A stretch of DNA of 64,000 nucleotides, from IMG/VR virus record IMGVR_UViG_2531839362_000002, positions 93 to 64,092 of that record. The stretch is one strand, 5' to 3'. How positions within the stretch are numbered: position 1 is the first letter of the stretch; every line of letters starts with the position of its first letter. Position numbers and translations under genes: made by a program. The notes beneath the pieces were generated by a model. That model was not told where the DNA came from. It worked only from the letters and a program-made list of their open reading frames with translations, and did no database searches. Below, piece after piece: positions 12,026 to 43,516 of this stretch. This stretch comes from a virus.

Positions 12026-12238
12026 TTATTTATTCCTTCGTTCTTTTCTCTTTAAAATATCCTCTTTAAAAAACAAACGATCTCGAACCATTTCTTTAAT
12101 CGGCACTAATGTCCCCGACTTCACTAACTTATTTAGATTCTGCCTCGAGCATTCTAAAATCTCCAATGCCTCTGAAGTATTCACAATTTCATCATTTACG
12201 AATTTTATTAGTTCTTCCTTAGATTCAAAGTTATACAT
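12026..12238 (-). CDS. Small HTH DNA-binding protein (MerR/excisionase-like), cassette 1 regulator
   Basis: NTSEALEILECSRQNLNKLVKSGTLVP; paralog of 42805-43080. Confidence 0.8.
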   Translation of the reverse strand: MYNFESKEELIKFVNDEIVNTSEALEILECSRQNLNKLVKSGTLVPIKEMVRDRLFFKEDILKRKERRNK

Positions 12239-12416
12239 TTTTCTTCTCCTTTATATAGAGAGTAATTATATTTACTATCATTAATACAAACGATATTATG
12301 CTAAATACTATTAAGACATAGCCCCATGTGTTTAAATTGTTATAATCCAGTATTGCTAAGATAAATCCTAAAATCAAAACTACGGGAATATTCGTCCAAA
12401 TAAACTTTTTCATCAT
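12231..12416 (-). CDS. Small 2-TM membrane protein, cassette 1
   Basis: Two hydrophobic helices; overlaps the HTH start; no SD visible. Confidence 0.7.
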   Translation of the reverse strand: MMKKFIWTNIPVVLILGFILAILDYNNLNTWGYVLIVFSIISFVLMIVNIITLYIKEKKNV

Positions 12417-12444
12417 ATTATATGGAATGTGTTATAATCTTAGT

Positions 12445-12518
12445 TACAAGGGAGATTGCTCTCCCCTGTGGTGTTATTCGGAGTCGACTTCTTGGCGGGA
12501 GCGACTCTTTTCTTTTTC
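12445..12518 (+). ncRNA. Putative antisense antitoxin RNA, cassette 1
   Basis: TG-T-TATAAT at 12430-12438; hairpin GGGAGA/TCTCCC; terminator GAGTCG...CGACTC + U-tract; complementary to the toxin 3' end. Confidence 0.6.
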
Positions 12519-12626
12519 CTCTTTGATTTTGTAGTATGTATCTACGCTGTTTTTAACAACTGTTGATACTTGGGAAAAGAATGTTGCGACTGCTGTTAGC
12601 GTTCCTAAGATTATTAACCAATCCAC
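12474..12626 (-). CDS. 50-aa single-TM peptide, putative type I toxin (cassette 1)
   Basis: GTG start with AGGAGGTG RBS: MDWLIILGTLTAVATFFSQVSTVVKNSVDTYYKIKEEKEKSRSRQEVDSE; below the ORF-track cutoff. Confidence 0.75.
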   Translation of the reverse strand: MDWLIILGTLTAVATFFSQVSTVVKNSVDTYYKIKEEKEKSRSRQEVDSE

Positions 12627-12651
12627 TTTGTTCACCTCCTGTTCTTTATAC

Positions 12652-12689
12652 TCTTATTATACACTTTAAGTTGACTTAAGTCAACTTAA
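12652..12689 (-). promoter_or_regulatory. SigA promoter overlapped by a perfect 24-bp palindromic operator
   Basis: TTGACT-N17-TATAAT on the minus strand; TTAAGTTGACTTAAGTCAACTTAA at 12666-12689. Confidence 0.8.
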
Positions 12690-13084
12690 TATCAAGAATT
12701 TTTTCCTATAAATCTAATTTTATCCTATAAAATAGCCTAACCCTCTCATTCGAGAAGGGTTTTTTATTACTTATTTTTTAGTACATTTACATTATTTCAA
12801 TTTGTATTAAAAGAATTTGGTATAATTAGCTTAATTTAAGGGAGGGAACTAGTTTGAAGGTTATTCAATCTATATTTAGAGGGTTTCGTTTATTAAGTAA
12901 AATTATAAATCCTATATTAAAGGCATTATCTAAAAGTAAATTTTAATTACATAGAAATAAAAAAGCCACCTAATAAAATGGTGGTTTTTTACTGTAAATC
13001 AAAATATTAAACACAATTGGATTTATATGTTAAAATTCAGTGTGTTTGCATTTAAATTTTATAAAAATGAAAGAAGGATATAAA

Positions 13085-14083
13085 ATGTCGTTAACCAGTA
13101 AATTAGATGCTAAAAATAAAAAAGATAAAGAGTTTAAAGACATACTTATACATGTCGAGCCCGAGAAGGGAGATTACTACACATTAAGTGGAAAGTTGCC
13201 TTTCTCCGAAGAATATAGCATGCATGTGCCATATAATTTATCTAATATATATAATGCAAGTTTGGTCGGAATAGCTTTTGACTATTTAGCTCGATTTAGA
13301 ATTGCTCAATTTGTAAAAGACGAAACTGTAATAAGAGATCTGGTGGCTTATAACGGATTTAAAAAATTAAACAACTATATTGATATTCCAGTTGAAATTT
13401 TTGATTCGTGGTTAGAAAAAGTATTAATGTTTATTAATGATAATTCAATATCAATCTCCCATTTATACGAGATATCTGTAAAGTTAGCTAAGTTAGAGCA
13501 AGTATCTCGGGCTAGGATTAATAAAGAAACTATCAATCGGGACTTTTTTATTATCGAAAATAGTCCCGACGAAGTAATTAACGAATTAGATAATTTGTTG
13601 AAGTTGTTTGAAAAGAAATTCATGATTCCAGAGATTATTAATGAAAAGAGTAACGTAATATTTAATCCTAAGTTTGGAGTGTCTTCACTTTTAGTCAGTG
13701 GAGCAGATGCAGACATATATATCGATGGTGTTCTTTATGATTTTAAAACAACAAAAGACAAATCGCTAAAACAAAAAGATAATTTACAAATGATTGGCTA
13801 TTATTTATTAAATGATTTAGCAAAAGCGACAATATCAGATGATTTAGGCTTTAATTACACCTATATGGAAATACAAAAATTATCATATTACAAAGCACGA
13901 TTTGGTGAAATAGAGTATTACGATGTTGAGAAACATTTACCATACGAAGGTGTAAAACCGAAGTTAAAACAATTAGCGGAGTATTTTACAAAAAATCCAG
14001 GAAGATTAAATTCAGCACCAATGTTTGCTGATGCTGAAACTGCTAAAGAAATATTAGAACAAATAAGTACAGATGCACTTTAA
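13085..14083 (+). CDS. Putative PD-(D/E)xK nuclease
   Basis: GADADIYIDGVLYDFKTTK...QMIGYYL motif; ATG 13085 follows a GAAGGA RBS. Confidence 0.65.
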   Translation: MSLTSKLDAKNKKDKEFKDILIHVEPEKGDYYTLSGKLPFSEEYSMHVPYNLSNIYNASLVGIAFDYLARFRIAQFVKDETVIRDLVAYNGFKKLNNYIDIPVEIFDSWLEKVLMFINDNSISISHLYEISVKLAKLEQVSRARINKETINRDFFIIENSPDEVINELDNLLKLFEKKFMIPEIINEKSNVIFNPKFGVSSLLVSGADADIYIDGVLYDFKTTKDKSLKQKDNLQMIGYYLLNDLAKATISDDLGFNYTYMEIQKLSYYKARFGEIEYYDVEKHLPYEGVKPKLKQLAEYFTKNPGRLNSAPMFADAETAKEILEQISTDAL

Positions 14084-14092
14084 ATTTATAAA

Positions 14093-14127
14093 AAAGAAGG
14101 GTTCCACAGATGCTGGAATCCTTCTTT
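14093..14127. terminator. Bidirectional terminator
   Basis: AAAGAAGGGTTCCA...TGGAATCCTTCTTT between convergent genes. Confidence 0.7.
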
Positions 14128-14131
14128 CATC

Positions 14132-14465
14132 TTACTTCACATACACATAGGCTTCATTTGTAGTTATATAGTATGTTTTACCTTTGCTATTATATACTTT
14201 ATATTGTGATGATCCATTGACAGTTACTTTTTCATCGATTGTAACACCTAGTCCTGCATCTAAAGTACCAGCCACGTCTTTATCATGCCAAGATGGAGAT
14301 TCATAGAAACGTAGGTTGTCCACTTTAGTAACAACACGCTTCCCTACAATAGAGGAATCTACTGTGCTTTTCTTACTAAACTTCACATAAGATGGATTGT
14401 TCTTAATCCATTGTTCACCGCCAAGATTTAACCAACCACCCTTTTCAGCCCATACAGCATAATAT
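14132..14465 (-). pseudogene. 5'-truncated endolysin remnant (C-terminal SH3-like domains)
   Basis: AVWAEKGGWLNLGGEQWIKNNPSYVKF...LRFYESPSWHDKDVAGTLDAG; highly similar to 17442-17760; no catalytic domain. Confidence 0.8.
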
Positions 14466-14723
14466 AAATCATTAGCATCAATTTATTACTTTCCCATTCG
14501 TGTTTTACCTCTATGTTATACTACATTACCTTTTGAGAACTATAACAAACACATATGTTGGAAAATATATTTTTTTGAGGAAACTTTAACCATTTATTGT
14601 TATAATTATATCCGCAATATTTTTCCAGGAGGGTTCCTATAAAGAACAATAGGATAATGGACATACATACTAGGCACTCCCCTTCTTTAATACGTTCATA
14701 GAAATATAGAAAGGGTTTATACG

Positions 14724-14999
14724 ATGGGAAAATTCCAAAGTAATTTACAAACAGCAACACAAATTGCTACGAAAATGGGATCAGCTTCTGACAGGGTTCA
14801 AAGTGCAACAAGTCGTTCTATAACAAAGGCGACGCGTACAACACTATCTGTTAACTCCAAAGCACAGGAAGCGAACCAACAAGTTTTAGATTTGACGAAA
14901 CAATTTTCTGTAGCCTTTCAACAAGCGGTTGATAATATTCATTCGGTAGCTAACGAGTTTGAGAGAATGGATAAAGAACTTCAAAATATTTTTCGCTAA
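14724..14999 (+). CDS. WXG100-like T7SS effector partner (TIGR04197-like)
   Basis: 91-aa helical protein ending IHSVANEFERMDKEL (FxxxD export motif); upstream of an LXG toxin. Confidence 0.75.
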   Translation: MGKFQSNLQTATQIATKMGSASDRVQSATSRSITKATRTTLSVNSKAQEANQQVLDLTKQFSVAFQQAVDNIHSVANEFERMDKELQNIFR

Positions 15000-15039
15000 T
15001 GTGATAACCTACGTAAAGTAAAACGGTAGGAGGAAAAAG

Positions 15040-15402
15040 ATGAGTCAAGACATTGAAAAACAAATGAATCAATTAAATCAAAAATTACGAAGTGTATTTG
15101 AAGAACAGAATCGGAATCAATCTGCGATTCAAACACAGGAACAAGTAGAAGAGGATTTTCATGTATGGAAAAATCAAAACCATCGTTTGTTTGACCGTAT
15201 TTTAGGAACTTGGCATAGAGATAGAGAAATGTCATTGTTTTTTATGAATATGAGTCAAGATGCACAATATATTGAGCGAAAACTTACTTTCGAATTGGAA
15301 AATCAAAAAGAAACATTACTTAAGGAAAAACGAAATCTTAGTGACTTAGAAAATGACCTTTACTATCAAAAACAGAATCTAGCAAAGGAGGTCAATTCAT
15401 GA
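15040..15402 (+). CDS. LXG-associated helical partner (DUF3958-like)
   Basis: 120-aa coiled-coil protein directly upstream of the LXG gene. Confidence 0.7.
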   Translation: MSQDIEKQMNQLNQKLRSVFEEQNRNQSAIQTQEQVEEDFHVWKNQNHRLFDRILGTWHRDREMSLFFMNMSQDAQYIERKLTFELENQKETLLKEKRNLSDLENDLYYQKQNLAKEVNS

Positions 15403-17081
15403 GTTTGAATATGTATCTAGGGGAAGTACATACGCAAACACAAAGTATGAACGCTGTATGTACCGCTACCATTCAAGGTATGGAACAAGCTATTCAGTCG
15501 ATTGATGCTTTTGCAATGGATACTGTTCTACAAGGACAAACTTATAGCAGTGCAAAAGCATTCTTTGCACAAACCTTTCGTCCATTAGCACAAGGAATCA
15601 TTTACTTGTGTGAAGAACTAATCCGTCAGAATGATGCCTTTCCAAGTCAATTTCAATCACAGGTAGCTTCAACAGATGTCATCGAACAAGAAATACTAGA
15701 ACAAATTCGAGGGATTGACCGAATGAGAGCAGGTGTTGAAGGGATTAGTAATGTCCTTCCAGCTATGCAAGCGATGATGGGTATTTTTGATATGATGAAA
15801 CGGAAACTGCAAGAAAAGTTAGAACACCTGCATGAATTCAATTATACTTCTAGTAGTAATTATGATACAGCACTCCAACTAGCCACTAGTATTGCTACGG
15901 GGCTTGCAGAAGTACAAAGTGGAAAAGGTTTTAGTCCTACAAGTGGTACATTTAGTACACAAGGGTTGAATATGGAATGGGCAACGTCTATTCAAGCGAT
16001 AGAAGAAGATAGGGCACGTAAAGCGGACAATTCGATTAAAGATGGAGAAATGTGCGGTAGGCTAGAGGAGAAATCTCCGATTAGAAAGGCTTGGGACGAT
16101 AAGGTAGACGATGTAGTTAAAATGTTCGAAACAGTAAAAAAGATGTGGAATGGTACTGTAATCGGAACAGGGAAAGCTGTTGAAGATGAAATCAAGTCCA
16201 TGGAAGCTTTAAGTAATATGGATATAGGAACTTTTATTAATGTTACATATGCGATTTTACATTTGGATGAAACGACAAAAAATATGTGGCATGCATTTTC
16301 AAGTACTGTGAAACGAGATATTATAGATGGAGATGCAGAGAGCATTACACAATGGACTACTTATGGATTAACCCAAATAGGCATCGGTCTAATTCTCGAT
16401 AGGGGACTAGGTAGAGCAGGCCTCGTCACAAAAGGAGCAGGTGGAGCAAGTACATTAGCTAAAGGCGTAACGCTAGTAAAAGAATTGAAGCAAGTATCGG
16501 ATATTTTACAACCTGTTAAGAAAGATGTTTCTTATGCTTTCTCTGGCGGAAATAATATACGCTCTAAATTTGATATACCTGATTTTAAACAAGCTGAAGA
16601 AAAGCTATCAACTCATCAGTTTGCTAATTCTGGTGGAAATACTAATACTAATGCTATAAAGCCAGGAGATACTAGTCCGTTAGCTCCAGGAGGAGGATTA
16701 ATTGCCCATGAGGCAAAACCTGGCCAAAGAAGAGGTGGTCACTTAATCAAAAAACACGTAGAAAAAACGGATGCAGAACTATTGCAAAGATTACAAAGTG
16801 ACCCTAGAATACCAGCATCATCATCTTTCACTAATAGGGCTATAGCCGAGAGAGTAGCTAATGAAGTTTTAAGTAATCCACAAAATATAGCAAAAATAAA
16901 TAGGTGGTTAAACAATCCTAATAGCAGACCAACCTTACCGCTAAGATATAACGGTAATAGTATACTTGGACGATATGTCGAAAGAGGATCAAATGGTGCT
17001 TTAGATGTGGAAAATGCTGTGATTGTTTTGAAAAAAGATAACCAAGGAAGTTTTATTATTACAGGATATCCAGAAAAGTAG
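15399..17081 (+). CDS. T7SS LXG polymorphic toxin with C-terminal bacterial RNase A-like (CdiA-CT type) domain
   Basis: N-terminal LQGQTYSSAKAFF LXG motif; C-terminal GGHLIKKHV...ASSSFTN...FIITGYP. Confidence 0.82.
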   Translation: MSLNMYLGEVHTQTQSMNAVCTATIQGMEQAIQSIDAFAMDTVLQGQTYSSAKAFFAQTFRPLAQGIIYLCEELIRQNDAFPSQFQSQVASTDVIEQEILEQIRGIDRMRAGVEGISNVLPAMQAMMGIFDMMKRKLQEKLEHLHEFNYTSSSNYDTALQLATSIATGLAEVQSGKGFSPTSGTFSTQGLNMEWATSIQAIEEDRARKADNSIKDGEMCGRLEEKSPIRKAWDDKVDDVVKMFETVKKMWNGTVIGTGKAVEDEIKSMEALSNMDIGTFINVTYAILHLDETTKNMWHAFSSTVKRDIIDGDAESITQWTTYGLTQIGIGLILDRGLGRAGLVTKGAGGASTLAKGVTLVKELKQVSDILQPVKKDVSYAFSGGNNIRSKFDIPDFKQAEEKLSTHQFANSGGNTNTNAIKPGDTSPLAPGGGLIAHEAKPGQRRGGHLIKKHVEKTDAELLQRLQSDPRIPASSSFTNRAIAERVANEVLSNPQNIAKINRWLNNPNSRPTLPLRYNGNSILGRYVERGSNGALDVENAVIVLKKDNQGSFIITGYPEK

Positions 17082-17093
17082 AGGAGAATTTGT

Positions 17094-17396
17094 ATGGAGA
17101 ATAAATATAGCCATTATGAAGAATTAGGTGATTTCTTAGCAGGAACATTTCACCAAGATATTGAATCACCTGAGGAAGCTCTTAATGAATTTATAATGGA
17201 AGTTACTAAAATATGTATCGAAAATACCAAAAATGATATACTTTTGTTTTTAAACAGTAATCTAACTGATAGTGAAAAAGAGGAATTTATTAAATATAAT
17301 GCTTACATTTATTTCCCTGCATTAAACTTAACAGCTATAGAATGGTTACAGCAGACCCTTGAAATACTAAAAGAAGCTATAAAAAGTAAAGAATAA
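17094..17396 (+). CDS. Cognate immunity protein (CdiI_2-like)
   Basis: LGDFLAGTFHQDI motif; immediately follows the toxin. Confidence 0.78.
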   Translation: MENKYSHYEELGDFLAGTFHQDIESPEEALNEFIMEVTKICIENTKNDILLFLNSNLTDSEKEEFIKYNAYIYFPALNLTAIEWLQQTLEILKEAIKSKE

Positions 17397-17405
17397 AAAC
17401 TAAAC

Positions 17406-17437
17406 AAAGCCGACTCAGCTTGATATGAGTCGGCTTT
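17406..17437. terminator. Bidirectional terminator
   Basis: AAAGCCGACTCA-N8-TGAGTCGGCTTT. Confidence 0.85.
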
Positions 17438-17441
17438 ACTA

Positions 17442-18488
17442 TTACTTCACACTCACATACGCATCACTAGCCGTAATGTAGTACTTATGCCCCTTCGAAT
17501 TATAAACACGATACTGCGGATACCCATTGACATTTACCTTTGCGTCGATTGTAAATCCTACTCCTGCATCTAAAGTACCAGCAACATCTTTATCCTGCCA
17601 AGATGGAGAATCATAGAAACGTAGGTTATTAACTTTAGAAACAACACGTTTGCCTTCCACAGATAAAGATTCTTCTTTATAGCGAATGTATGATGTATCG
17701 TTATAAATCCACTGATTTCCTCCAAGGTTTAACCAGTTTCCTACTTTACCCCAAACTTTATATGATTCACCTTTTTGTAGCTTGCGGATGACATTATTGC
17801 TTGTGGATGGTCCAGACCGAAGGTTTACATTTTGACCATCAATATAAGCCACATCACTTGCTTCTGTTACACTTCCAGATGGTTCTTGTGGTTTTGGTTT
17901 AACCGATACAGAATCACCATTATATGCCTTTAAAACATCGTTTCTAAATTGGGATTCTGATACACCATGACTCTTTAGATATTGTATTGGGTCTTCATGA
18001 TCTGTACCACCTAATTTGTAAGTAATATCTTTATGAGTCCATAGCCCAACACTTGGATGGATATTTCTATCTTTTAATATTTCTGCAAGCAACTTTACAT
18101 ATCTTTCATACGATTTTTTGAATTTAATAGAGTCACTAGTTTCAGATAGCTCTACATGTACAAATCTAGCATTTGCCGCTGGACCTGCACCCCATGCACG
18201 ATATTTAGTAGATGCAATCTGAATGTTTTCATCCCAATCCGTTGCATAATGCACAAAAGCATTTCTCCATGTTCTAGCTTCATAATTTCTAATATTGATA
18301 GCAGGTGCTTCTGGTGTCGCTGTGGAATGCGCTACTACCCCCTCATATGCACCGACACCATATCTATATCCTTGCTTTGGTAAATCTGGAATAATCATTT
18401 CTCTATCTGCAAAAACACTTCCTACAGATGTTAATAAAATAATAGAAGCCGTTGCAACTGAACTTAATACTTTAATAGATTTTTTCAT
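17442..18488 (-). CDS. Endolysin, N-acetylmuramoyl-L-alanine amidase (Amidase_2) with SH3 domains and an apparent signal peptide
   Basis: VAHSTATP, AFVH, HVELSE, THKDIT...DHEDP; PlyL/PlyG-like. Confidence 0.92.
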   Translation of the reverse strand: MKKSIKVLSSVATASIILLTSVGSVFADREMIIPDLPKQGYRYGVGAYEGVVAHSTATPEAPAINIRNYEARTWRNAFVHYATDWDENIQIASTKYRAWGAGPAANARFVHVELSETSDSIKFKKSYERYVKLLAEILKDRNIHPSVGLWTHKDITYKLGGTDHEDPIQYLKSHGVSESQFRNDVLKAYNGDSVSVKPKPQEPSGSVTEASDVAYIDGQNVNLRSGPSTSNNVIRKLQKGESYKVWGKVGNWLNLGGNQWIYNDTSYIRYKEESLSVEGKRVVSKVNNLRFYDSPSWQDKDVAGTLDAGVGFTIDAKVNVNGYPQYRVYNSKGHKYYITASDAYVSVK

Positions 18489-18715
18489 TTTACATCACCA
18501 TTCCCCATAATTTTTTGTTTGATATCTGATACATCATTTACTAATGAACTAAAGGCTTTTGCTTGTTCTTCAATTACACCCTGGTTCTTTTCAATGACCT
18601 TTTGATATTGCTCTTCACGCTGTTCATTCTTTTTTTGCGTAGTAAAAAGCATCCACACGAATAATGCTGCGAATGCTCCCTGTTGCATCATTGAATTGAA
18701 AATTGCATCTTCCAT
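18485..18715 (-). CDS. BhlA-family holin
   Basis: QQGAFAALFVWMLFTTQKKNEQRE; overlaps the endolysin start. Confidence 0.88.
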   Translation of the reverse strand: MEDAIFNSMMQQGAFAALFVWMLFTTQKKNEQREEQYQKVIEKNQGVIEEQAKAFSSLVNDVSDIKQKIMGNGDVK

Positions 18716-18740
18716 TGTTCTCATCCCCTTTGCAAAATAA

Positions 18741-18766
18741 AAAGAGCAGCGAAATCGCTCCTCTTT
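18741..18766 (-). terminator. Terminator after the AbrB-like gene
   Basis: AAAGAG-CAGCGA-aa-TCGCTC-CTCTTT. Confidence 0.6.
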
Positions 18767-18837
18767 GTTATAAAAACCGTATTTTATTCAAAATTAAAAA
18801 CAACTCATGGATGCCCTACTTATTTAAACGTATTTAG

Positions 18838-19242
18838 TTAATATTGATCTGCTGATAATGCTTTTTCTATCATTCTATTTTCTACTTCTTTAACATGTTC
18901 AATTGTTACTTCATCAGAAGCCCCTGGTCTCTTTCCAGTTAGCTTTACATAATCTTCGGCACAGATAAGACTTACTTTACCGAAAAGCTCAATCTCGTAA
19001 ACTCTGCCGCCCTTATTACATAAATCACATGCAGTAGCAATCCGCATATTCAACGTGCCATCAGGAAGTCCCCAAACTTCAACTTTTGTATCTTCCTTGA
19101 TACCGCAAAATTCTAGCATATCGTTTGGAATGCTAACGGTGACTTGATTTTCACCTTTCTTCAAATCAACTACTCTACCTAAGAATGGTGACTGTTCATT
19201 AGGTGGCATTGGACGCATAAATTTGTCTGGATTCATACTCAT
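18838..19242 (-). CDS. AbrB/SpoVT-like regulator with C-terminal Cys cluster
   Basis: GRVVD...QVTVSIPNDMLEFCGIKEDTKVEV swapped-hairpin pattern; CDLC...C. Confidence 0.6.
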   Translation of the reverse strand: MSMNPDKFMRPMPPNEQSPFLGRVVDLKKGENQVTVSIPNDMLEFCGIKEDTKVEVWGLPDGTLNMRIATACDLCNKGGRVYEIELFGKVSLICAEDYVKLTGKRPGASDEVTIEHVKEVENRMIEKALSADQY

Positions 19243-19250
19243 CTCCCTCT

Positions 19251-22200
19251 CTATGTTCTAGAAGTCATATTTGTGAAATCAACATAATTCCATCTACCAT
19301 CATGGAAATACCACCCTAAACCTAAGCTACCATTTGTATAATGAATAGAACCTGCATTAGCACCAAAGTATCCACCACATACGTTAATCCCATTACATTC
19401 AATTGATTGTGTCGTTGCAACAGGATCTTTTGATTCAATTCGGAATCTATTCTCATTGTTGTAAAGATGACCAATGTAACTTCTACGTTCTCCACCGCCA
19501 CGGGGATAAAAACTGAGTCCCGCACGATCAGTCCCAACGAGTGCCATCATTTCACCATTGCTTACGATTTCAAGTGGAGCATTCATATAGTTCCATCCGT
19601 TCACATGATTGTACCGAATTGTATTATCTCTTGTACCAAGTGCAATTGTAGAAAAAGGCAGTGTTCCGTTTACGAGTTCTCCATGTGTTGTATCCCAGTT
19701 ATAAACGGAAGGAACGTCACCTTCCACCAACTGAACACCTGATACAGCAATTGCTTGCATATTATTTAAGAGCCCCTCGCCAAATAAATCAATATAAACA
19801 TAACCATTTCCTTCTACATAGTTACTCGGCACAGTGAAGGTTAAAGCGTATCTTACTATTTTCCCAGTTTGAATGCTTGGTGCATCGTAAGTTTTTGATG
19901 CTCGTCCAAGCTCCACGGGAGTGTCACCGTTATATTTACCGAAAACCGCTCTCATGATTGGCTTGTTTGTAATGTTTACACGATTATCATTGGTAGTTGC
20001 TCTGAAATGAGCCGACAATGTGTATTTCTTACCTGGTTTTACACCATCAAATAATGTAAAACGAATCCAATTTGACAAATCTATCCGCAACGGATTAACC
20101 ATTGGCTCATAATTGTTAACCACTGGTTTCTCAATATATGGATTAGACATAATTGTCCATGTAGGACTGTATTCAATCTTCAAAAAATAATTATTAAAAT
20201 TCTTAAAAGAAATGTGTGAAAAGTCATGATCTGGAATGAGATTCTTCCTTGGTGTTACTGAAAATTTCTGCCCACGCTCATCTTCAAAAAAGAAGTCAGC
20301 CATTTTTGCTGTAATACCATTCTTATCGATCGTAACTTTCCCATTTTCGATTTTAATTACATCTGCATTAATACCTGTTGCAGTGAGCCATTTTACAATG
20401 GTATCAGCGTTAATCTGCAACTTAGCAACATTAATTTGAATCTTTTCAGCTGTTTGATTAATAGCCGAGATAATATCGCCTTTTTGGACGGTACTAGTAA
20501 TTGCTTTTTCAGTTACCTCAATACGTCCCTCTTGTTTTTCTACATACGCTTTATCCGCATATCTTCCGTCAGCCTGTTGTTTTGTATATACTTCGGTTTT
20601 TACTGCAGCAAGTTTAATTCCCTCCGTATTGGCGGAAATAAGGCGCTCTAATTCAGTTGTTTTCTGGTTGTAATCTAGTGTAGCTACTTTATTGGAAATA
20701 TCTTCAATCATTTTATCAACATTAGTTTGATCTTTTGGATGCAACCAAAATTCTGTAGCTACTTTACCACGCTGCAGCATAGGCATGCAGAACCAAGCTC
20801 TACCATTTCTTTGTACGTATGGTCGAAACCTTACAAATCCAGTTCCTGCCGGAGCTTTAGCTGTACAAATAGCTCTGACCCAAGTATTGTTAATGATTTG
20901 AACTCTTTCTCTAGCAGTTGAAATTCGGGTTGTTTTATTTGATTGCCAAAATTCCAACTCGATAAATACACCATTATCAATTGGAACTTTTCCATCAGTG
21001 TTAAAGTAAGCAGAAGTAACAATATCTTCATTAGGAGAACAATCTATAAATTGACTAAAAGCACCCCACCATACATCCTGGGTTTGTCCTGTAGTGTTCA
21101 TAGAAAACGAATTGTATCCTTTATACTTTAGGTTAGAATCTATAGAGTGCCCAGTAGCCCACCCCCAGTATCTATTCCCTTGAGTAAAACCAGCGTCACG
21201 AATCTCATTAATAGATCCAAGACCGCCAACATAATTCTCAACATCTTTCATTTTCACAGCCATCTCAAGTGCATCAGAATGTTGTTTGATTGTAGATTGA
21301 GCATCAGAAATCTGTTTACCTTGTTCCGTTTGTGTTTCTTGTAACTTGCCAACGTTTTGAGAAACACCTTCAGCCGTTTTCTCTACTGCTGTTACACGCT
21401 TATCAAATCCATTTTGATTATTTTCAACTTTTGTTACTGTTTCTTTGATTCCATTTACACTTTTTTCAATCTCGGTTGTTTTCTTGGTGAAGTCATCGGT
21501 TGTTACTTGGTTTTCTGGAGCTGGTGTCCAATCCTGTGGTTTGTTCCCTTTATATAAAGCGACCCATTCTACAACAGCTTTTGTAGTATTACTTGGAAAG
21601 TTATATAAACTTAACTTCCGTTCATTTCCACTTGTAGCCGCAACAGCTTTGAAAGTTACATAAGTTATTCCATTAGCGTAAAGACTTGTTGCATATCCAA
21701 CATTTTTTGAACCGCCATTCTGCCAAATTCCAAATTTTTGACCTTGTAGGACACTTCCTTTAATTACAAAGGTATATTCCTCACCTGTAGAGAAATTTTC
21801 AGTCGCATTGTATTGATTGATTAAATAATCCGTTTTTTCATATTTAACATTTGAATCTAATAGAAGGTTACGTCCTCCTGCTTTATCGTTATCAACCTTC
21901 TTTTCTACGCTCTCTAATTTCTCACTGATCTTCCCAGCTTTCTCTGTAATTTCAGTTGTGGTTTTCTTTAGATCATTTGTTGTTTGCTGCACCTCAGAGA
22001 TTATTTTTTTTGTGCCTTCAGAAGTCTCTACTACTGTATTTAATTTTTCAGTGATTTCACCGTCTTTTTTTGTTAACGATGCAATAGATTTAGTAAAACC
22101 TTCGTTGGTTTGTTTCATTTCAGAGACAGTTTTATTAATTTCACCTTGAGAGTTTTGTACATTTTTAATTGTTAGAGAAACCTCTTGGAGATTTTCTTTC

Positions 22201-25189: not shown

Positions 25190-25230
25190 GTTGACACCTC
25201 ATTTCTTTATAAAATAAAAGAAACCCAAAC

Positions 25231-28200
25231 CTAAAAGGCTGAGTCTCTTTGTTTTTCTCTTTCTTGGTACTCGGTTGTATATCGATACGTACCACGCGCC
25301 ACATCTCGCCCCTCTATAACAACAGGAACCTCAACAACCAAATCACCACCAAGCATCGGAATTGCTCCGTCACCAGATGATCCAAATGAGTTATTAAATA
25401 CTTGATTTGATACACTGCTTGTCATAGCTTGTCTACTATTTGACATACTTCCATACACACCACTCATAACAGACTTTAAAACCGATAATTGGCTCATAGA
25501 ACTAGCCATCATGCGACTCATATCACCCATTAATTGATTCATAGTCCCAGTAATACCGAGTGATTTTTCTTTCGATGATAAAGGTGTAACTGTAATTGAA
25601 TTACCCTTCTTCTTAAATAATTCTGGTCCGGCTTCCCCTGTGATAAATGAACCATCACCTACAGGCTTTCCACCTTTAGCAAGCATTGGTACATGAGGAA
25701 TAGTTGGTGCACTAACACCTGGTATATTGTTTAATAATTCTGCTGGTGTGTTAAAACCGTCTATGAACTTATTTATGATACGAATAATTCCATTAATCGC
25801 TGTTTTAATACCGCTTTTAATTCCATCCCATACACCTAATACAGCTGATTTCATTCCTTCAAAAGCTCCACTAACAGCACTTGTTACCCAACGAACAGGA
25901 GTCATAATTGCATCTTTCAGTCCATTCCAGACAGAAGATGCGGTTGACTTTATACCTTCCCAAATGTTTGAGAGTGTTGATTTAATACCATTCCAAATAC
26001 TACTACTTGTACTACTAATCATATTCCATACAGTTGAAATTGCTTCTTTGATGTTATTAAAGACAGAACTTGCTGTGGAAACAATTGAGTTCCATAAGCT
26101 AGAAAGGAAGCTTTTAATCGTATTCCAAACTGCGCTTGTTGTGGAATTAATCGTGTTCCAGGCATTCACAATCCAGTTTTTTATTACATCAAAAATTGGT
26201 GTTACGATAGCGACTAATCCATTCCAGCATGCTTGCAAGAAATTCTTCAATGTATTCCACACCGTCATTGTGGTGGAACTAATAACATCCCATACATTCA
26301 CAATCCAATTTCTAAGTGTTTCAAAGACAGCTGTCGCAATCGAAACAATGCCATTCCAACAAGCTTGAAGAAAAGCAACTATAGCATTCCACACTGTTGT
26401 TGCAGCTAAACTAATAGCATCCCACACAGAAACAATAAAACTCTTTATTGATTCAAATATTGGAGTAGCAAAGTATAAAATAGCTGTCCAAACCGCCTGT
26501 AAGTATTGCGTAATGAAATTCCATACCGTTTGAATAACTGTGGAAATACCATTCCAAATCATAGAGAAGAAATCAGCAATGCCTTGTAAAATAGGAGTTA
26601 GAAAGGCAACTAATCCATTCCAGGTGCTAATGAAAAACTCACTAATCGCTGTCCACACTTCGGAAGTGGTTTGGCTGATACTATTCCAAACTTCTGATAA
26701 TGTTTCAACTACCCCATCCCAAATACCAGTCAAATACTCAACAATTGAATTCCATGTTTCCGTAGTAATTTCAACAATCGAATTCCATGTTTCAGATAAG
26801 GACTCCGTTATCCCATTCCATAGTTCTACTAAAAACTCTTTAATTGAATTCCATACAGAAGCTGTAGATTCACTAATACTTTCCCATGTTTCTGTTGCCC
26901 ATTGGGATATGCCGTCCCAAATTCCTGTTAGAAATTCTGTAATTGAATTCCATACCTCCATGGTCCATTTTTTGATATCGTCCCAATTTTTATAAATCGC
27001 AATGCCTAGAGCTGCTATAACCCCTATAATAATAGGAATTGCAGCAACAAGCGTGGCGGCTATTCCTGCTCCGATACCAAACAAGCTCATGACCGCCACG
27101 ACTATAGGAGCAAGCGCCATAATCGCACCAGAAATAACCCCGATAGCTACTGCAATTGCTGCTAATGTTGCTGCTAATTCCGGATTGTCAGAAACCCATT
27201 CTGCAAATTTAGAAACAAGATCTGCTACCACTAATAAAACTGGTTCAAGAGCTATCTTTAAATCTTCCATAGCTTTTTGAAATTTAACAGCTGGACTTGC
27301 ATCTATTTTAGAAGTTGCTCCATGTAAATCTTCTACACCTTTTTTCAAATCAACTTGCTTACCTTCTGCCTTTAGAATCGTATTAATAATTTTCTTTCCT
27401 TGGTCTTCCCAAAGGGTTCCGAACATCTTCGTGCCAAGCGCATTTCTGTCTGTCGCATTTTCAACACCAGCTAAAGCCTTGGTTGCTTCAAGCATCGCTT
27501 TTTGTCCATTTTCACCACCGCCAGCAATTGCTTGTCCCCATTTTTCAAACTGATTGGCTGAAATCTTTGTTTTATCTAAAACCGCTTGCATGGACTTATC
27601 TACACCAGCACCAAACTCAGCCATTTTGATACGACCTTCTTTAATACCCGATATGTTCAACAGGACTCGCAACATCCTGTCAGTTCTCTTATGAACTTCT
27701 GTATATCACTATACAGACCAGACTATATCATCATCTTTATATAAGATGCTCCCCATTTCGGATGTCATTGGCTTACACCCTACGTCTTTCGACTAGTCGT
27801 TACACACTTCCTATTTATTGGCTTGGCTCGGTATTGTCTCTTATGTGAGAGTTTCACCGAATTAGAGGAGTTTGCTATGAATGTCTCCACTCATAGGGAC
27901 AATTTTTTATCCAATAGGTTGTCTATATTCCAACTTTTCGTGTCTACACCTGCTGACATAATTCCTTGAACTTCTTTAGCTGTAAAACCAGCTTGAACCA
28001 TTTGGTCACCATATTCAGCAATAATGTCTAATTGTTCTGGTGGAAAACCTGTTTTTAATAAAGTATTAACTAATCCTAAAGCCTCTTCATTAGTAATCCC
28101 TAATGTTGCACCAATCTCATTCGCTTCCTGTATAAGCTCATTAAAATCAATCCCTGCATAACTTGAAGCTATAGTTGCCGCTCCTTTAACTACAGCCGCA

Positions 28201-29141
28201 TTCGTTTCATCAGAAGCATCCTTATTCAATGCCCACTGTTTTCGAACACCCTCTAAGGCTTCTTCTGCATCCACACCATAAGTAGTTACACCCCTTACAG
28301 CTTCTTCTACTGATTTTTTCGAAGACTCCGGAACATCAAAAGTGATATCAATCTTTGTTTTTAATTTAGACATGTCCATTGCTTGCTCAACTGCACTTGC
28401 AATACCGCCACCGGCTGCTATACCACCTATGACATTTTCTAACCCTACTTGTAATCCTTCAAACTTTTCCTCTGTCCTTCTAGCTTCTTGTTGTAAATCT
28501 CTTAACTCATTTCGTACTTGTTGTATGGAGTTTCCAGCATCCACAGAGCGAAGCGCACGTTGTAATTTTTCAATATCTGTTTCTGCTCCTAAAGCTTCAC
28601 GACCAATAAGACCAATTGCCTGTTCTAACTGGCGACTTGTAGCCGATCCACTTTTAATTGCATTTACAAGACGATTACCTAATGCTCCTGCAAAGTCATC
28701 AACGCTTTTTCCTGTAGCACTAAATAAGGTTTCTAATTGCCTAGTGGAGCTTGCTACACTTTCTTGCTCAGCTTTCATGTTTCCAAGCTTATTTTTCAAC
28801 CCATCAAGTGAGCCTTGTGTAAATTCAATTTCACGCCTAAACGCACGATATTGTTCTTCAGAAATTTTACCGTTTTGAAATTGAGCTTGGACTTGTTGTT
28901 CCGCCACCTTCAATTTATCTAACTTTTGCGTTGTATTTTCAATTTGTTGTGTAAGTAATTTTTGTTTTTGAGAAAGCGCCTCAATATTCCCAGGGTCAAA
29001 TTTTAAAAGGCGCTCAATATCCTTTAACTCTTTAGCTACATCATTACTCCGCTTATTAACATCTTTCAAAGCATTTTGAAGACCTGTGGTTTCACCACCG
29101 ATTTCAACTGTTATTCCTTTAATTCTTCCTCCTGCCATCAT
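25231..29141 (-). CDS. Tail tape-measure protein, two exons (29141-27909 and 27648-25231), about 1216 aa spliced
   Basis: Splicing joins ...WNIDNLLD|GIKEGRIKMAEFG in frame; Trp-periodic repeats in exon 2. Confidence 0.9.
27649..27908 (-). mobile_element. ORF-less group I self-splicing intron (260 nt)
   Basis: 5' exon ends in U with P1 GGAU/GUCC pairing; terminal G; core AATTCGGTGAAAC, AATACCGAGCCAAGC, AACGACTAG, GATATAGTCTG. Confidence 0.9.
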
Positions 29142-30325: not shown

Positions 30326-30655
30326 TTATAACAACCTCGTTTCATATATTTTTTGATACAATTTTTCAGATTCAATAAAAGTCCCAAACGATTCATAAGG
30401 AATATCATGATCATCTAGGACTTGTTCTAATTTGGATTCAGCAATTAAATCTTTTTTAATTGTATAAAGCTCAATAGTTACATCATTTATTTTGTGATAG
30501 ACTTTGTTATCAGCTGGCATATTAGGAGAACCATCTACAAAGTAACAAATATAAGGCGGTGTTGGCACAGGATTACCTGGCGTTTCGGTGAAATGCGAAT
30601 AAGCCACAGGATTACCTGTAGCATCAAGGATTTTTTTGAATTCACCTAATGTCAT
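30326..30655 (-). CDS. Tail completion/terminator protein
   Basis: PPYICY...IELYT motif; neck position. Confidence 0.75.
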   Translation of the reverse strand: MTLGEFKKILDATGNPVAYSHFTETPGNPVPTPPYICYFVDGSPNMPADNKVYHKINDVTIELYTIKKDLIAESKLEQVLDDHDIPYESFGTFIESEKLYQKIYETRLL

Positions 30656-40706: not shown

Positions 40707-40859
40707 AAGAGATGATTTATTTTCATCTCTTTTTTCTTTTGCAATACAAAATAACCGTCCAACATTGAACGGTCATCTTGTATTAAAAGCTATATAAAGT
40801 TTTATCTATACATAAGTAGCATCTGTATGAAAAATAAGAAAGAAAAATTTTCAGTCTTT

Positions 40860-42707
40860 TTATTTTGTTATTTCACTTATACACTCTGCTAATTCTCTTA
40901 ATAAAATCACTTTCGGAGAAATTTCTTTCCCTTTTATGTGGTTCTCTATCTCTTTTTTAAGTTCCTTTAACACAGGTAACTCTACCGAAAGTTCTTCTCT
41001 CATGACATCTTTATAACGCCTCTCTATAACGTCAATAAAGAAGTACAAATCACGATTTTCAAGACTAAATATCGTCTCTTTTATTAATTGGAACTCTAAA
41101 ATATGAAATATCGGGATGTTTTGATATTCAACATCCATTTCCCTCCCAAATTTAGGAACATCAACTTTTATTAATTGGAACAAGTTAAAAATATCCTGTT
41201 TTTCCTTTTGTGCTTTTAACCCATCAATTGACGAACACAATTTATCCAATATTAACTTTCTATTTCCACTAGCGATTGTTCTGGCAGCTGATAAACCTTC
41301 TTCTCTATCTTCTTCATATTCAGCTTTTTCCTTAGCCTTATCTATACCACTAAGTATCGCTTCTGTAAGTTCATCAATGCTCTTATCAAAGAGTTTCAAT
41401 TTAATAAGTTCTTCAAATCGGTTATATGCAATATAATAAGTATATAAATCGCAATCTCCCTGTTCTAATTTTTCAAAAGTCAATTGAGTTAATCTCCTGA
41501 AATCTTCATCGGAATGATACCAATATTCATGCGTAAGAAATGAATTATATTTCAATTCTTTTTCACCATTTTTTGTAATTCCATCCATTTCATTTTTAAA
41601 GGTTGCTATATCAAGAATACCTTTCCTTACAAATGTTTCAATAAATTTAATATACCTAATGTTGTTTTCTTCAAGAAGATATTTCTCATCAAATGCCTTT
41701 AAAGATTTCCAAGGTTCATCTTTTACGTTATCCATTAAACGAACATGATAGAAAAATTCTTTATCTGATGTTATTTTTTCTAGACTATCACTTTCCTTCA
41801 TTCCAGAACGAATCTCAAAACTAATAGCCAATGTAAAATAAAGAATTTCTCTCATAACTTTTTCGCTAATCTTAGGATAATTCTCTTGTATCTCATTATA
41901 AATAACTTCAAAATCAAAAATTATTTGTTTTAAGATACGAATATTATTGGTATTACTACTATGAAATAATTTTTCAATTAGAACCATGTTATCCTGTAAC
42001 ATCTTTTTGCAATCCTGATTTTTCATCGAATTAACTATTTGCTCCACTACTACTGTATGATCAGGTTTATATAATAAAGTACGCCCAATAACTTTTTCCT
42101 TAATTTTCTTATATTTTTCTTTCTCTTCTATCGCTTCTTCATTCGCAATTATTATTACTTTCGCATTGCCATGTTCCACTAATTCATTTATATAGCCTAA
42201 CAACTCATTAATTGGTATTGAACTTCTTTCTAAGTCATCAAAACAAAAAACCACATCACTTAAATTTATTAATTTTTGAATATCTGTTGTTTCTAACTTG
42301 AAACTATTTGCACTAACCCCCAAAAATTTCGCATCTTTTAACCCAGAAAGAACAATACTTCCCACTTTAATCACTTTTTCATTTTTAAATGGATTAAATT
42401 TATTATTAAACAGATTAAATTTATTTTTATTTTCTCCTTTATTTTTATATAAATATAAATTTAATAAAAGTTTCTTTCTCACCTCATCAACATTAGAAAG
42501 ACCGTATAACGAGATGTATACATGTTTATATGTGTCATCGGAATTATCTTGTATAATAGGTATTTCTTCGATTTCCTCTATGAGGTTATTCTCCCAAAAA
42601 TGCGTTTTCCCACTACCCCATGCTCCATTTATAAGTACTGCATAAGACGTTTGCTCTTGTTTTACAAAACTCTTTATACTTTCTACTATATATTGACTTT
42701 GACTCAT
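40860..42707 (-). CDS. KAP-family P-loop NTPase
   Basis: VLINGAWGSGKT Walker A; FCFDDLERS Walker B; YKKIKEKVIGR. Confidence 0.85.
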   Translation of the reverse strand: MSQSQYIVESIKSFVKQEQTSYAVLINGAWGSGKTHFWENNLIEEIEEIPIIQDNSDDTYKHVYISLYGLSNVDEVRKKLLLNLYLYKNKGENKNKFNLFNNKFNPFKNEKVIKVGSIVLSGLKDAKFLGVSANSFKLETTDIQKLINLSDVVFCFDDLERSSIPINELLGYINELVEHGNAKVIIIANEEAIEEKEKYKKIKEKVIGRTLLYKPDHTVVVEQIVNSMKNQDCKKMLQDNMVLIEKLFHSSNTNNIRILKQIIFDFEVIYNEIQENYPKISEKVMREILYFTLAISFEIRSGMKESDSLEKITSDKEFFYHVRLMDNVKDEPWKSLKAFDEKYLLEENNIRYIKFIETFVRKGILDIATFKNEMDGITKNGEKELKYNSFLTHEYWYHSDEDFRRLTQLTFEKLEQGDCDLYTYYIAYNRFEELIKLKLFDKSIDELTEAILSGIDKAKEKAEYEEDREEGLSAARTIASGNRKLILDKLCSSIDGLKAQKEKQDIFNLFQLIKVDVPKFGREMDVEYQNIPIFHILEFQLIKETIFSLENRDLYFFIDVIERRYKDVMREELSVELPVLKELKKEIENHIKGKEISPKVILLRELAECISEITK

Positions 42708-42804
42708 CTTCTCTTCTCCCCATTGAATTTTTTGATTTTTTCCTTAAGCATTCAAACCCCTAAACATTGATATCCACCTTCCACTATCAAACATCCCTCT
42801 TTAT

Positions 42805-43080
42805 TTATTCTTCATATGGTCTATATTTACTACGCAAGACTTCTAATTCTTTCTTCTTCTCTTCAATGTCTTCACGTAGAAATAAACTAACTCGTTCCAT
42901 CTTCTTAAATGGCACAAGCTTACCATCTTTAATCATTTTACTAATTCTCGCTTTACTAATCCCTAAAACATCCATTACCTCTGGTGTTGTTAATACCTCA
43001 TCATGTAAAAAAGAAAGCAGTTGCTCTTTATCTTCAAACTTGTACACTTTATTCACCTCTTTTTTCTTTAAAAATCCCAT
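42805..43080 (-). CDS. Small HTH DNA-binding protein, cassette 2 regulator
   Basis: LTTPEVMDVLGISKARISKMIKDGKLVP. Confidence 0.8.
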   Translation of the reverse strand: MGFLKKKEVNKVYKFEDKEQLLSFLHDEVLTTPEVMDVLGISKARISKMIKDGKLVPFKKMERVSLFLREDIEEKKKELEVLRSKYRPYEE

Positions 43081-43246
43081 AAAGTCGTAATGACGTATTT
43101 ATTATATAAAGGACTAAAAGAATGATTAACGCGATATCCAAAACAGTTTTAAAAATACTCGCTTCGAGTGAATCTCGAAAATACGCAAAGTAAAACAGTG
43201 TAACGAAAATAATTAAGATGTTAGATGAATTACTTGTTTTCTTCAT
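43049..43246 (-). CDS. 65-aa 2-TM membrane protein, cassette 2
   Basis: Two hydrophobic helices; no SD visible. Confidence 0.7.
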   Translation of the reverse strand: MKKTSNSSNILIIFVTLFYFAYFRDSLEASIFKTVLDIALIILLVLYIINTSLRLYGIFKEKRGE

Positions 43247-43282
43247 ATTGTTTACAAATTGGCAAGTTGTTATAATGTGTAT

Positions 43283-43372
43283 AGAAGAGAGAAGGTGGGC
43301 TTCTCTCTTCCGCTCAAAATCATTTTCGTTTACGTCTGGCTGGGCGTTTTCGTTTGGTTTTGAGCTTTTTCA
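43283..43372 (+). ncRNA. Putative antisense antitoxin RNA, cassette 2
   Basis: TTGTTT-N17-TATAAT with extended TG (43248-43276); 11-bp hairpin 43284-43310; GCTCAAAA...TTTTGAGC + T5 terminator. Confidence 0.62.
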
Positions 43373-43454
43373 CTTTTTCGTGGATAACTAGGACTTTTTC
43401 GATGATTGTTAGTGCTGTAAGTACCACTCCTAGTATCAGTGCTAACTTTGCCAA
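43320..43454 (-). CDS. 44-aa YonT-like single-TM peptide with polybasic tail, putative type I toxin (cassette 2)
   Basis: TTG start, AAAGGGGG RBS: MAKLALILGVVLTALTIIEKVLVIHEKVKKLKTKRKRPARRKRK. Confidence 0.78.
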   Translation of the reverse strand: MAKLALILGVVLTALTIIEKVLVIHEKVKKLKTKRKRPARRKRK

Positions 43455-43480
43455 TTTGTTTCCCCCTTTCTTTCTATATT

Positions 43481-43516
43481 TATTATGCCACACCTATTAA
43501 CTTAAGTGAACAGGTG
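43481..43516 (-). promoter_or_regulatory. SigA promoter with an imperfect 26-bp palindromic operator
   Basis: TTCACT-N17-CATAAT; CACCTATTAACTTAAGTGAACAGGTG (22/26 symmetric; same ACTTAAGT core as cassette 1). Confidence 0.72.

Follow-up and report, generated by a model that had tools for sequence, protein, structure and literature searches.

Introduction

In Gram-positive bacteria, knowledge of type I toxin-antitoxin systems comes from a few Bacillus subtilis loci. The locus that is closest in layout to the elements described here, yonT-yoyJ/SR6, belongs to the B. subtilis prophage SPbeta (Reif, Loser and Brantl 2018, PMC5848175; review PMC6562991). Its second gene was judged non-functional outside B. 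subtilis for want of a ribosome binding site (RBS), since YoyJ there has an ATG without RBS directly beside the SR6 -10 box (PMC5848175). The SPbeta sequence was read directly. YonT is a protein of 58 aa with a single transmembrane (TM) segment and a polybasic tail, and its gene starts with GUG behind an over-long Shine-Dalgarno (SD) sequence. SR6 is transcribed from TGTTATAAT and overlaps with yonT at the latter's 3' end. YoyJ carries two TM segments, and the gene after it, yonU, has a promoter of its own and codes for a coiled-coil protein of 62 aa that is not a regulator. Here, three cassettes (A, B and C) are described in a 64,000-nt stretch of viral DNA (positions 93 to 64,092 of IMG/VR record IMGVR_UViG_2531839362_000002; hereafter the window). 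The window covers nearly all of a 64,127-bp provirus record, has 27-38% G+C and carries structural, lysis and replication phage genes typical of the Bacillus cereus group. With a probability of roughly 0.6, the cassettes are toxin-first operons of temperate Bacillaceae phages, of the yonT-yoyJ/SR6 kind and with an added transcriptional autorepressor.

Architecture and conservation of the cassettes

The cassettes were read from a listing of open reading frames (ORFs) together with direct reading of the sequence. All three showed one order of elements: a SigA promoter overlapped by a palindrome, a strong SD, a peptide with one TM segment and a charged tail, a hairpin, an antisense promoter and terminator, a two-TM (2-TM) gene without SD, and a gene for a DNA-binding protein (Table 1). 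Every feature of the three-cassette architecture claimed in the initial annotation was present where it had been placed, including the palindrome over each promoter, which was perfect in A (24 bp) and B (16 bp) and a quasi-palindrome of 11 of 13 pairs in C. Perfect palindromes of 24 bp are expected 0.02 times per window and those of 16 bp about twice, and the one in B is placed in the promoter spacer. The peptides and 2-TM proteins were merely 18-27% alike among A, B and C and the helix-turn-helix (HTH) proteins of A and C had an identity of 41-43%, which with the identical order of elements agreed with the claim of divergent sequences in a common architecture. Absence of an SD from the 2-TM gene, also claimed, was found in 14 of 14 cassette types, with an SD duplex energy of about -1 kcal/mol compared to -14 to -22 kcal/mol for the peptides.

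Searches of IMG/VR anchored on the HTH protein and on HicB, together with sequenced phages and genomes, produced more than 100 related loci in phages or genomes of the B. cereus group, B. subtilis, Lysinibacillus, Parageobacillus and Paenibacillus. Intact three-gene units in IMG/VR proviruses comprised 29 of C type, 28 of B type and approximately 25 of A or D type, the last being a fourth type found in prophages of Bacillus anthracis by database names. The three-gene unit was also found in phages Deep-Purple (gp018-016), B13, SDFMU_Pfc (Lysinibacillus), JGon-2020a (Parageobacillus) and yong1 (B. subtilis). The initial annotation had suggested a tblastn and synteny search as a check. The regulator-anchored searches recovered intact cassettes as above, and tblastn with peptides A and C against sequenced phages produced nothing useful; these queries are short and of low complexity, therefore no absence was deduced. 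Public annotations of the cassette genes were all 'hypothetical' or 'DNA-binding protein'. PADLOC and NCBIfam contained no family for the peptides or 2-TM proteins, while PADLOC-DB 2.0 gave weak HTH-level matches only (mad1, E 1.9e-5) and none for the peptides, 2-TM proteins or HicB. As far as could be found, the family is widespread in Bacillus-type phages and undescribed: the literature search showed no description beyond SPbeta, with many subscription journals outside its reach, so that a prior description is possible.

All three genes of the cassette are under purifying selection. The ratio of nonsynonymous to synonymous diversity (pN/pS) ranged from 0.09 to 0.37 across all nine gene sets and was 0.33 (A), 0.37 (B) and 0.22 (C) for the peptides, 0.31 (A), 0.13 (B) and 0.20 (C) for the 2-TM genes, and 0.19 (A) and 0.09 (C) for the regulators. 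The first half of the 2-TM ORFs was likewise selected at the protein level (0.27 for the first half alone in A), which argues that translation starts at the SD-less ATG. In addition, synonymous diversity (pS) in the B and C types was three to four times lower in the peptide gene than in the regulator gene (in B type, 0.045 compared to 0.16 in hicB). The non-coding intergenic region of C was the least variable part of that cassette (nucleotide diversity, pi, 0.005). The low synonymous diversity of the peptide genes and this intergenic minimum together indicate an extra constraint at the nucleotide level.

Table 1. Features of cassettes A, B and C and of the gene between B and C, in window positions. 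Promoters, operators, terminators and RNA elements are predicted. TIR, translation initiation region of the peptide; anti-TIR, complementary segment before the 2-TM gene.
Cassette	Feature	Position	Strand	Remarks
A	Whole cassette	12026-12689	-	
A	Regulator, 70-aa HTH_17	12026..12238	-	MerR/excisionase-type winged helix
A	2-TM protein, 61 aa	12231..12416	-	No SD
A	Anti-TIR	12421..12447	-	Complementary to 12600-12627 (peptide start codon and first codons)
A	Antisense extended -10	12430..12438	+	TGTTATAAT
A	Intergenic hairpin	12447..12468	-	Three pairs with compensatory changes; G-U pairs favour sense strand (18 A-type loci)
A	Peptide, 50 aa	12474..12626	-	GTG start, one TM, mixed-charge tail; phrog_12246, E 3e-33
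A	Antisense terminator	12480..12520	+	Hairpin and U-run, within peptide 3' coding end
A	-10 box and leader with strong SD	12627..12661	-	One-base variant of common leader, ...AAAGAACAGGAGG
A	SigA promoter	12656..12684	-	TTGACT-17-TATAAT, 11/12 consensus matches
A	Operator	12666..12689	-	Perfect 24-bp palindrome TTAAGTTGACTTAAGTCAACTTAA covering -35
B	Whole cassette	39794-40706	+	
B	SigA promoter	39794..39822	+	TTGATA-17-TATAAT with TG, 11/12 matches
B	Operator	39799-39814	+	Perfect 16-bp palindrome ACGTATTATAATACGT inside promoter spacer
B	Peptide, 53 aa	39852..40013	+	One TM, polybasic tail
B	Antisense terminator	39940..39962	-	GCGTTGAGGACGC and U-run, within peptide 3' coding end
B	Intergenic hairpin	40020..40049	+	
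B	Anti-TIR	40052..40071	+	Core TCATCTCCC, complementary to GGGAGATG at peptide start
B	Antisense promoter	40056..40085	-	TTGACA-16-GATAAT (or TG-extended TAATAT), 11/12 matches; -35 overlaps 2-TM ATG
B	2-TM protein, 56 aa	40079..40249	+	No SD
B	Regulator, HicB family	40284..40706	+	C-terminal ribbon-helix-helix; PF15919 35.6 bits (cut-off 27); PDB 9svk_B, E 4.7e-16
B	Bidirectional terminator	40705..40733		End of cassette
B/C slot	KAP-family P-loop NTPase (nucleoside triphosphatase)	40860..42707	-	Cargo
C	Whole cassette	42805-43516	-	
C	Regulator, 80-aa HTH_17	42805..43047	-	GTG start, C-terminal helix, KYRPY tail
C	2-TM protein, 65 aa	43049..43246	-	No SD
C	Anti-TIR	43253..43269	-	AACTTGCCAATTTGT, complementary to ACAAATTGGCAAAGTT around TTG start
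C	Antisense extended -10	43268..43276	+	TGTTATAAT; in least variable part of cassette, pi 0.005
C	Intergenic hairpin	43284..43310	-	
C	Peptide, 44 aa	43320..43454	-	TTG start, one TM, LTIIEKV motif, polybasic tail
C	Antisense terminator	43332..43361	+	Hairpin and U-run, within peptide 3' coding end
C	Promoter	43482..43510	-	TTCACT-17-CATAAT, TG-extended; weaker, 9/12 matches
C	Operator	43491..43516	-	26-bp quasi-palindrome CACCTGTTCACTTAAGTTAATAGGTG over -35, 11/13 pairs

Predicted fold-back helix of the messenger RNA

A feature beyond the initial annotation is a predicted, conserved long-range helix in the mRNA that would mask the start codon of the peptide. Approximately 35 nt located 5' of the 2-TM ATG were complementary to the region of the peptide start codon in all 16 types compared, with sequences that differed by type. 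The duplexes between the translation initiation region (TIR) of the peptide and this anti-TIR ranged from -14 to -30 kcal/mol, with z-scores of -1.2 to -5.0 against shuffled sequences. Examples of the pairing are GGGAGAUG with CAUCUCCC in B, ACAAAUUGGCAA with UUGCCAAUUUGU in C, and ACATCTCCC with GGGAGATGT at the corresponding place of a Parageobacillus locus (L088), and the helix of the D type had 11 unbroken base pairs. For each of the three window mRNAs, both the minimum free energy (MFE) fold and the centroid fold contained the helix, and the stability of these mRNAs was well above that of shuffled sequences (z -5.3 to -5.8). In A, the duplex was -23.6 kcal/mol (z -5.0) and the mRNA fold had a z-score of -5.8, while the respective values in C were -18.0 kcal/mol (z -3.8) and -5.3. 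The RNAalifold consensus of 18 A-type loci kept the helix with one compensatory column and three G-U columns, and the G-U pairs fit the sense strand only.

Antisense signals and expression

The initial annotation had claimed a convergent antisense unit with its -35 on or beside the 2-TM ATG. Promoter and terminator signals were found in A, B and C, and the placement of the -35 on the ATG held for B. The extended -10 of A and C, TGTTATAAT, had 12 matches in the 128 kb of strand given by both strands of the whole window, therefore approximately 0.006 are expected per intergenic region. A further TGTTATAAT was seen on the antisense strand within the 2-TM gene of cassette A (window 12338-12346, +). 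Among the diverged types, antisense TGNTATAAT was found in 10 of 13 and a hairpin with U-run inside the peptide gene in 13 of 13; the terminator stem of A was invariant across 18 loci with one compensatory pair. The predicted antisense RNAs of 75-111 nt fold as two hairpins (z -2.1 to -4.3); they would span 12446-12520 (+) in A, 40050-39940 (-) in B and 43282-43361 (+) in C, with lengths of about 75, 110 and 80 nt, respectively. Rfam showed no match in the cassettes, at the gathering threshold or at E up to 1.

A 938-nt unstranded contig from one RNA-seq library spanned exactly 39764-40699 (cassette B) with a word depth of 92, and a longer unstranded contig spanned 42809-43513 (cassette C) with a word depth of 128. 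These contigs are compatible with expression of B and C in a lysogen and possibly also with DNA carry-over.

Regulators and putative operators

The regulators were assigned to HTH twice and HicB once, as had been claimed, with Pfam scores of 27.7 and 36.9 bits for HTH_17 and 35.6 bits for HicB_lk_antitox. The AlphaFold2 (AF2) model of the C regulator (pLDDT, the predicted local distance difference test, 86.7) showed an N-terminal helix, a winged helix of the MerR/excisionase type and a long C-terminal helix. Comparison of the HTH model with the PDB by Foldseek produced the weak neighbours RacA (5i44), RdfS (8dgl) and BldC (6ama), all with E of 0.04 or worse, with a TM-score (template modelling) by target of 0.59-0.69 and a root mean square deviation of approximately 2 A over 45-57 residues. 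The label 'excisionase' of PHROG 4691 was rejected on context, as two copies are present here and none stands beside an integrase. This provirus has two members of the HTH family, and relatives have up to three each.

Across more than 100 loci, the class of the promoter palindrome tracked the class of the regulator and not the peptide; the palindromes are putative operators. The short HTH went with TTGAC-N4-GTCAA, the long HTH with palindromes resembling TCTATTTAC-N4-GTAAATAGA, and HicB with ACGTATTATAATACGT. The core TTGAC-N4-GTCAA of the A operator was kept in all A-type loci and in phage Deep-Purple. The C operator in 30 loci kept 9-13 of its 13 pairs, with outer arms that varied partly in step; this covariation was not taken to prove protein binding, since template switching is another way in which quasi-palindromes can become homogeneous. 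The initial annotation had called the regulators swappable, and two combinations agreed with this: Parageobacillus phage JGon-2020a joins a peptide and 2-TM protein like those of B to a long HTH and the operator type of that class, and locus L093 has hicA-hicB behind a B-like control region. Classes in the third slot were the short HTH_17, the long HTH_17 with KYRPY tail, HicB, an Xre-like class and three classes without Pfam match. Proteins of one third-gene class without Pfam match are 57-64 aa long and combine a basic helix, '(R/Q)EKN(R/K)E...', with an acidic one at the C-terminus (L138:657-827, L143:2910-3101 and L150:5194-5382). The HTH alone was rejected as a marker of the module, since Clostridium phage CWou-2020a pairs an HTH with a soluble 68-aa partner.

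Common leader and relation of cassette B to hicAB

The stretch from the -10 box through the SD was nearly identical across the A type, the B type and phages Deep-Purple, B13, SDFMU_Pfc and yong1. In A, the leader had an SD duplex of -18.6 kcal/mol and the lowest diversity of the A-type alignment (pi 0.017). The exact 24-mer TATAATAAGAGTATARAAAGGAGG, made of -10 box and leader, was found in 49 IMG/VR contigs and 16 species genomes, among them Lysinibacillus, Bacillus badius, B. glycinifermentans, three Paenibacillus species and one metagenome-assembled genome (MAG) of Peptostreptococcaceae. The genes behind it mostly encoded, in order, a peptide with one TM segment, another membrane protein and a small protein that belonged to one of several classes. 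This non-coding leader also stands before unrelated first genes and is better conserved than any gene. Some first peptides behind it are 'inverted', with a polybasic N-terminus and a C-terminal TM segment, as a mirror image of the YonT-like design (L124, L142, L147 of Paenibacillus alvei and L143 of the Peptostreptococcaceae MAG).

In four loci (L092, L130, L093 and L149), the leader precedes a true pair of HicA and HicB by Pfam. The 54 nt of promoter, operator and leader in L093 were 94% identical to those of cassette B, and the HicB proteins were 48% identical overall, with the ribbon-helix-helix part more similar by eye. HicA (PF07927) had no match in the whole provirus record. The simplest reading of these sequences is that hicA was replaced by the peptide, the antisense unit and the 2-TM gene, while the control region and hicB were retained in B. 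Such a replacement would put the peptide in the position of the toxin, as would the fact that the common leader and operator drive a true hicA-hicB.

Cassette borders, decay and genomic context

The cassettes had sharp borders, where diversity changed from 0.3-0.45 outside to 0.005-0.07 inside. In locus L045, the peptide ORF was precisely deleted between short repeats and the remainder was intact; the peptide gene of L037 was frameshifted, and L049 was missing the promoter and the peptide gene. Versions without regulator were found in SPbeta and in L098, L116 and L154. Copies that lost the peptide and versions without regulator fit a toxic first gene and an accessory repressor. A remnant cassette with a truncated 2-TM gene and an intact short HTH adjoined a complete D-type cassette in L035 (1618-2722), which suggests cassette replacement by recombination.

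B and C were convergent neighbours in 27 of 28 related proviruses. The slot between them, occupied here by the KAP-family gene, was empty in 8 of the 28 (a gap of 90 nt) with the cassettes still intact. Alternative cargos were a membrane protein of 144-149 aa, a 256-aa protein, a metallo-beta-lactamase (MBL)-fold protein with a C-terminal HTH_17-like domain and a pair of 305 and 153 aa, with examples in L060, L065, L072, L080 and L083 at about 2923-5100. The cargo was always on the strand of cassette C. A scan between the stop of the C regulator (42805) and the start of the KAP NTPase gene (42707) found no terminator, therefore co-transcription is possible.

Directly upstream of cassette C (43667-46671, -), a 292-aa HNH protein was identified together with a 705-aa AAA_21/AAA_15 ATPase whose N-terminus gave a weak HNH match, a pair that looks Septu-like. 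Approximately 300 nt downstream of cassette A, a gene with the Panacea antitoxin domain (SocA-like, PF13274, E 9e-20) was identified at 11221-11721 (-), followed by a 602-aa protein without Pfam match. Overall, the cassettes are conserved islands amid variable, defence-like cargo. Elsewhere in the window, a group I intron that matched the full-length model of Rfam RF00028 with 85.5 bits was found at 27699-27918 (-) between the tape-measure ORFs 25231-27675 and 27891-29141.

Proposed working and alternative explanations

From the above we infer peptide toxicity, an antisense RNA, repression and a trigger, which may work together as follows. One mRNA for the peptide, the 2-TM protein and the regulator would be made from the strong SigA promoter, and the regulator, a dimer of the MerR/excisionase-type HTH in A and C and the ribbon-helix-helix HicB in B, would bind the promoter palindrome and keep transcription low. 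In the full-length mRNA, the start region of the peptide would pair with the segment before the 2-TM gene, thus blocking translation despite the strong SD. A two-hairpin antisense RNA of 75-110 nt, running from the intergenic extended -10 to the 3' coding end of the peptide, would pair with the mRNA and promote its decay like SR6. Should these short-lived brakes fail, as might happen when transcription is shut off, when the element is lost or when another phage infects, the single-pass, charge-tailed peptide would be made and would damage the membrane. The 2-TM protein may act as a second toxin of weak effect, which is what has been reported for YoyJ, or may be a partner of the peptide at the membrane.

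Several results weigh against this reading. The antisense -10 box was weak in 3 of 13 types, and in the A type it overlaps the anti-TIR segment, so that part of the 'promoter' could be a by-product of the helix. The sole RNA-seq support came from the unstranded contigs, which hold no information on strand or ends and may reflect DNA carry-over, and the phage was not present in two raw-read RNA-seq runs of the same species label. The helix was not significant against shuffled sequences in 5 of 16 types (p 0.047-0.10) and was absent from SPbeta (p 0.93). Similarity to the SPbeta proteins was marginal: peptide C scored 17.3 bits (E 0.0037) against the NCBIfam model YonT_type_I_tox (NF047537), which has a cut-off of 45 bits, and shared with YonT in BLASTP only a 10-aa motif (E 0.005), the likeness to YonT running through LTI(I/V)EKV, while peptides A and B had no match to NF047537 and YoyJ had no sequence similarity to the 2-TM proteins. 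Given this marginal similarity to YonT and its absence for YoyJ, the cassettes are, on their predicted layout, systems of the YonT kind and not members of the YonT family.

The cassettes could instead act at the protein level, as type II-like toxin-antitoxin systems in which HicB, the HTH protein or the 2-TM protein neutralises the peptide directly and the antisense unit is minor or non-functional. The toxin-first order and the palindrome-bearing promoter are as in hicAB, B keeps a complete HicB including the N-terminal partner-binding domain and has its operator and leader in common with a true hicA-hicB operon, and peptide-less copies retain the 2-TM gene and regulator, the usual path of antitoxin decay. 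This explanation was nevertheless considered unlikely, given the versions without regulator in SPbeta and the three loci named above, the at least five unrelated regulator folds in the third slot, which suit repressors better than specific binders of a membrane peptide, and the non-coding antisense region as the most conserved part of cassette C. The hybrid type I/type II-like family of the initial annotation accordingly stood in part: one family with the SPbeta layout was recovered, while the regulator, being dispensable in some versions, looks like an add-on repressor and not an essential antitoxin. A similarly low probability was given to membrane effectors expressed in the lysogen, with the peptide and 2-TM protein acting on incoming phage in superinfection exclusion or abortive infection and with no addiction. 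Small 2-TM exclusion proteins such as T4 Imm and HK97 gp15 exist, the cassettes lie in moron or defence regions (the KAP NTPase slot, the Septu-like pair and the Panacea gene near A), and in Deep-Purple the unit has its own constitutive-type promoter on the strand opposite the late genes. However, three layers of silencing on the first gene would be odd for a protein needed before infection, and PADLOC gave no match; exclusion is also a rival only in part, as it is compatible with a toxin-first operon as its biological role.

It is still less probable that the promoter, operator and regulator serve mainly as a regulatory head for the genes after A and C, with the peptides secondary. The lack of a terminator found between the C regulator and the KAP NTPase gene, the jump of diversity directly after the regulator stop codon and the cargo on the C strand in all examples would fit such a head, but the slot was empty in 8 of 28 proviruses with intact cassettes, a strong terminator ends cassette B, and the peptide and 2-TM genes are under purifying selection. 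A holin/antiholin-like lysis accessory was held to be very improbable: although the small proteins carry charged tails and one or two TM segments, A-type cassettes directly follow the endolysin gene in many proviruses and a weak match to holin family phrog_20 (E 0.005) was found, the cassettes have their own, putatively autoregulated SigA promoter outside the late operon, occur in three to four copies per prophage at non-lysis positions, and the prophage has separate lysis genes.

Beyond the toxin-first operon itself, a wider proposal is tentatively offered as a whole. The cassettes might represent a 'toxin-swap platform' of temperate phages of Firmicutes, in which a conserved promoter and leader drive interchangeable toxins, either the RNase HicA or a membrane peptide with a second membrane protein, joined by interchangeable DNA-binding partners with matching operators, the membrane-peptide versions being under triple silencing. 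The fold-back helix might then tie translation of the toxin to the SD-less second gene, and the units might be kill switches triggered by infection or loss that also anchor and stabilise the variable slots of defence genes. For prophages of the B. cereus group, the cassettes also bear on the question of how variable defence regions are arranged and perhaps kept stable.

Comparison with known systems

The initial annotation had likened the layout to that of SPbeta, a locus without a known dedicated regulator, and the SPbeta sequence agreed, with YonT, TGTTATAAT, YoyJ and then the coiled-coil YonU. Likeness between SPbeta and the cassettes extends to the order of elements, a rare start codon with an extended SD, a one-TM peptide of at most 60 aa with a polybasic tail, a hairpin, an antisense RNA of approximately 100 nt over the toxin gene's 3' end (predicted in the cassettes) and the antisense -10 TGTTATAAT, which SPbeta has in common with cassettes A and C. 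The 2-TM ORF with poor or no RBS starts at the antisense promoter in the position of YoyJ, a layout found in 14 of 14 types. In addition, SPbeta resembles the cassettes in its -10 box and leader (TATAATAGAGTCATAGGAAAGGAGGTG, compared to TATAATAAGAGTATAGAAAGGAGG in the cassettes), and both are borne by prophages. In contrast, the SPbeta unit has no regulator gene, and no palindromic operator was seen there. An SD-less 2-TM gene is thus conserved and selected across genera, and such loci are often joined to a putative dedicated repressor.

In hok/sok-type fold-back, long-range pairing within the toxin mRNA conceals the site where its translation begins. The cassettes may be analogous in this long-range masking of the start, and the antisense RNA predicted over the toxin gene's 3' end is as in bsrG/SR4, bsrE/SR5 and txpA/RatA (PMC6562991). 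Compared to hok/sok and the type I systems of B. subtilis, the masking segment predicted in the cassettes lies in a polycistronic mRNA directly before an SD-less ORF, and the operon includes a putative repressor gene, so that a layered model of silencing that is transcriptional, antisense and fold-back is proposed.

The small winged-helix proteins of the excisionase/MerR type have, by HTH_17 and structure prediction, a fold in common with the A and C regulators. Unlike the excisionases of PHROG 4691, these regulators are multicopy per prophage and each is encoded last in a membrane-peptide operon with its own palindrome.

HicAB (PF07927, PF15919; HicB structures 9svk, 5yrz and 4p78) has in common with cassette B the toxin-first order, a HicB with a C-terminal ribbon-helix-helix and a palindromic operator. 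In B, two genes for membrane proteins, separated by a predicted antisense unit, take the position of the toxin, and the provirus has no HicA, which suggests that a type II hicAB operon can swap its toxin for a type I-style membrane unit while keeping its control region. Relative to these known systems, the new features are the proposed replacement of hicA, the rule by which operator class follows regulator class, the predicted start-masking helix, the leader common across families and the cargo slot between B and C.

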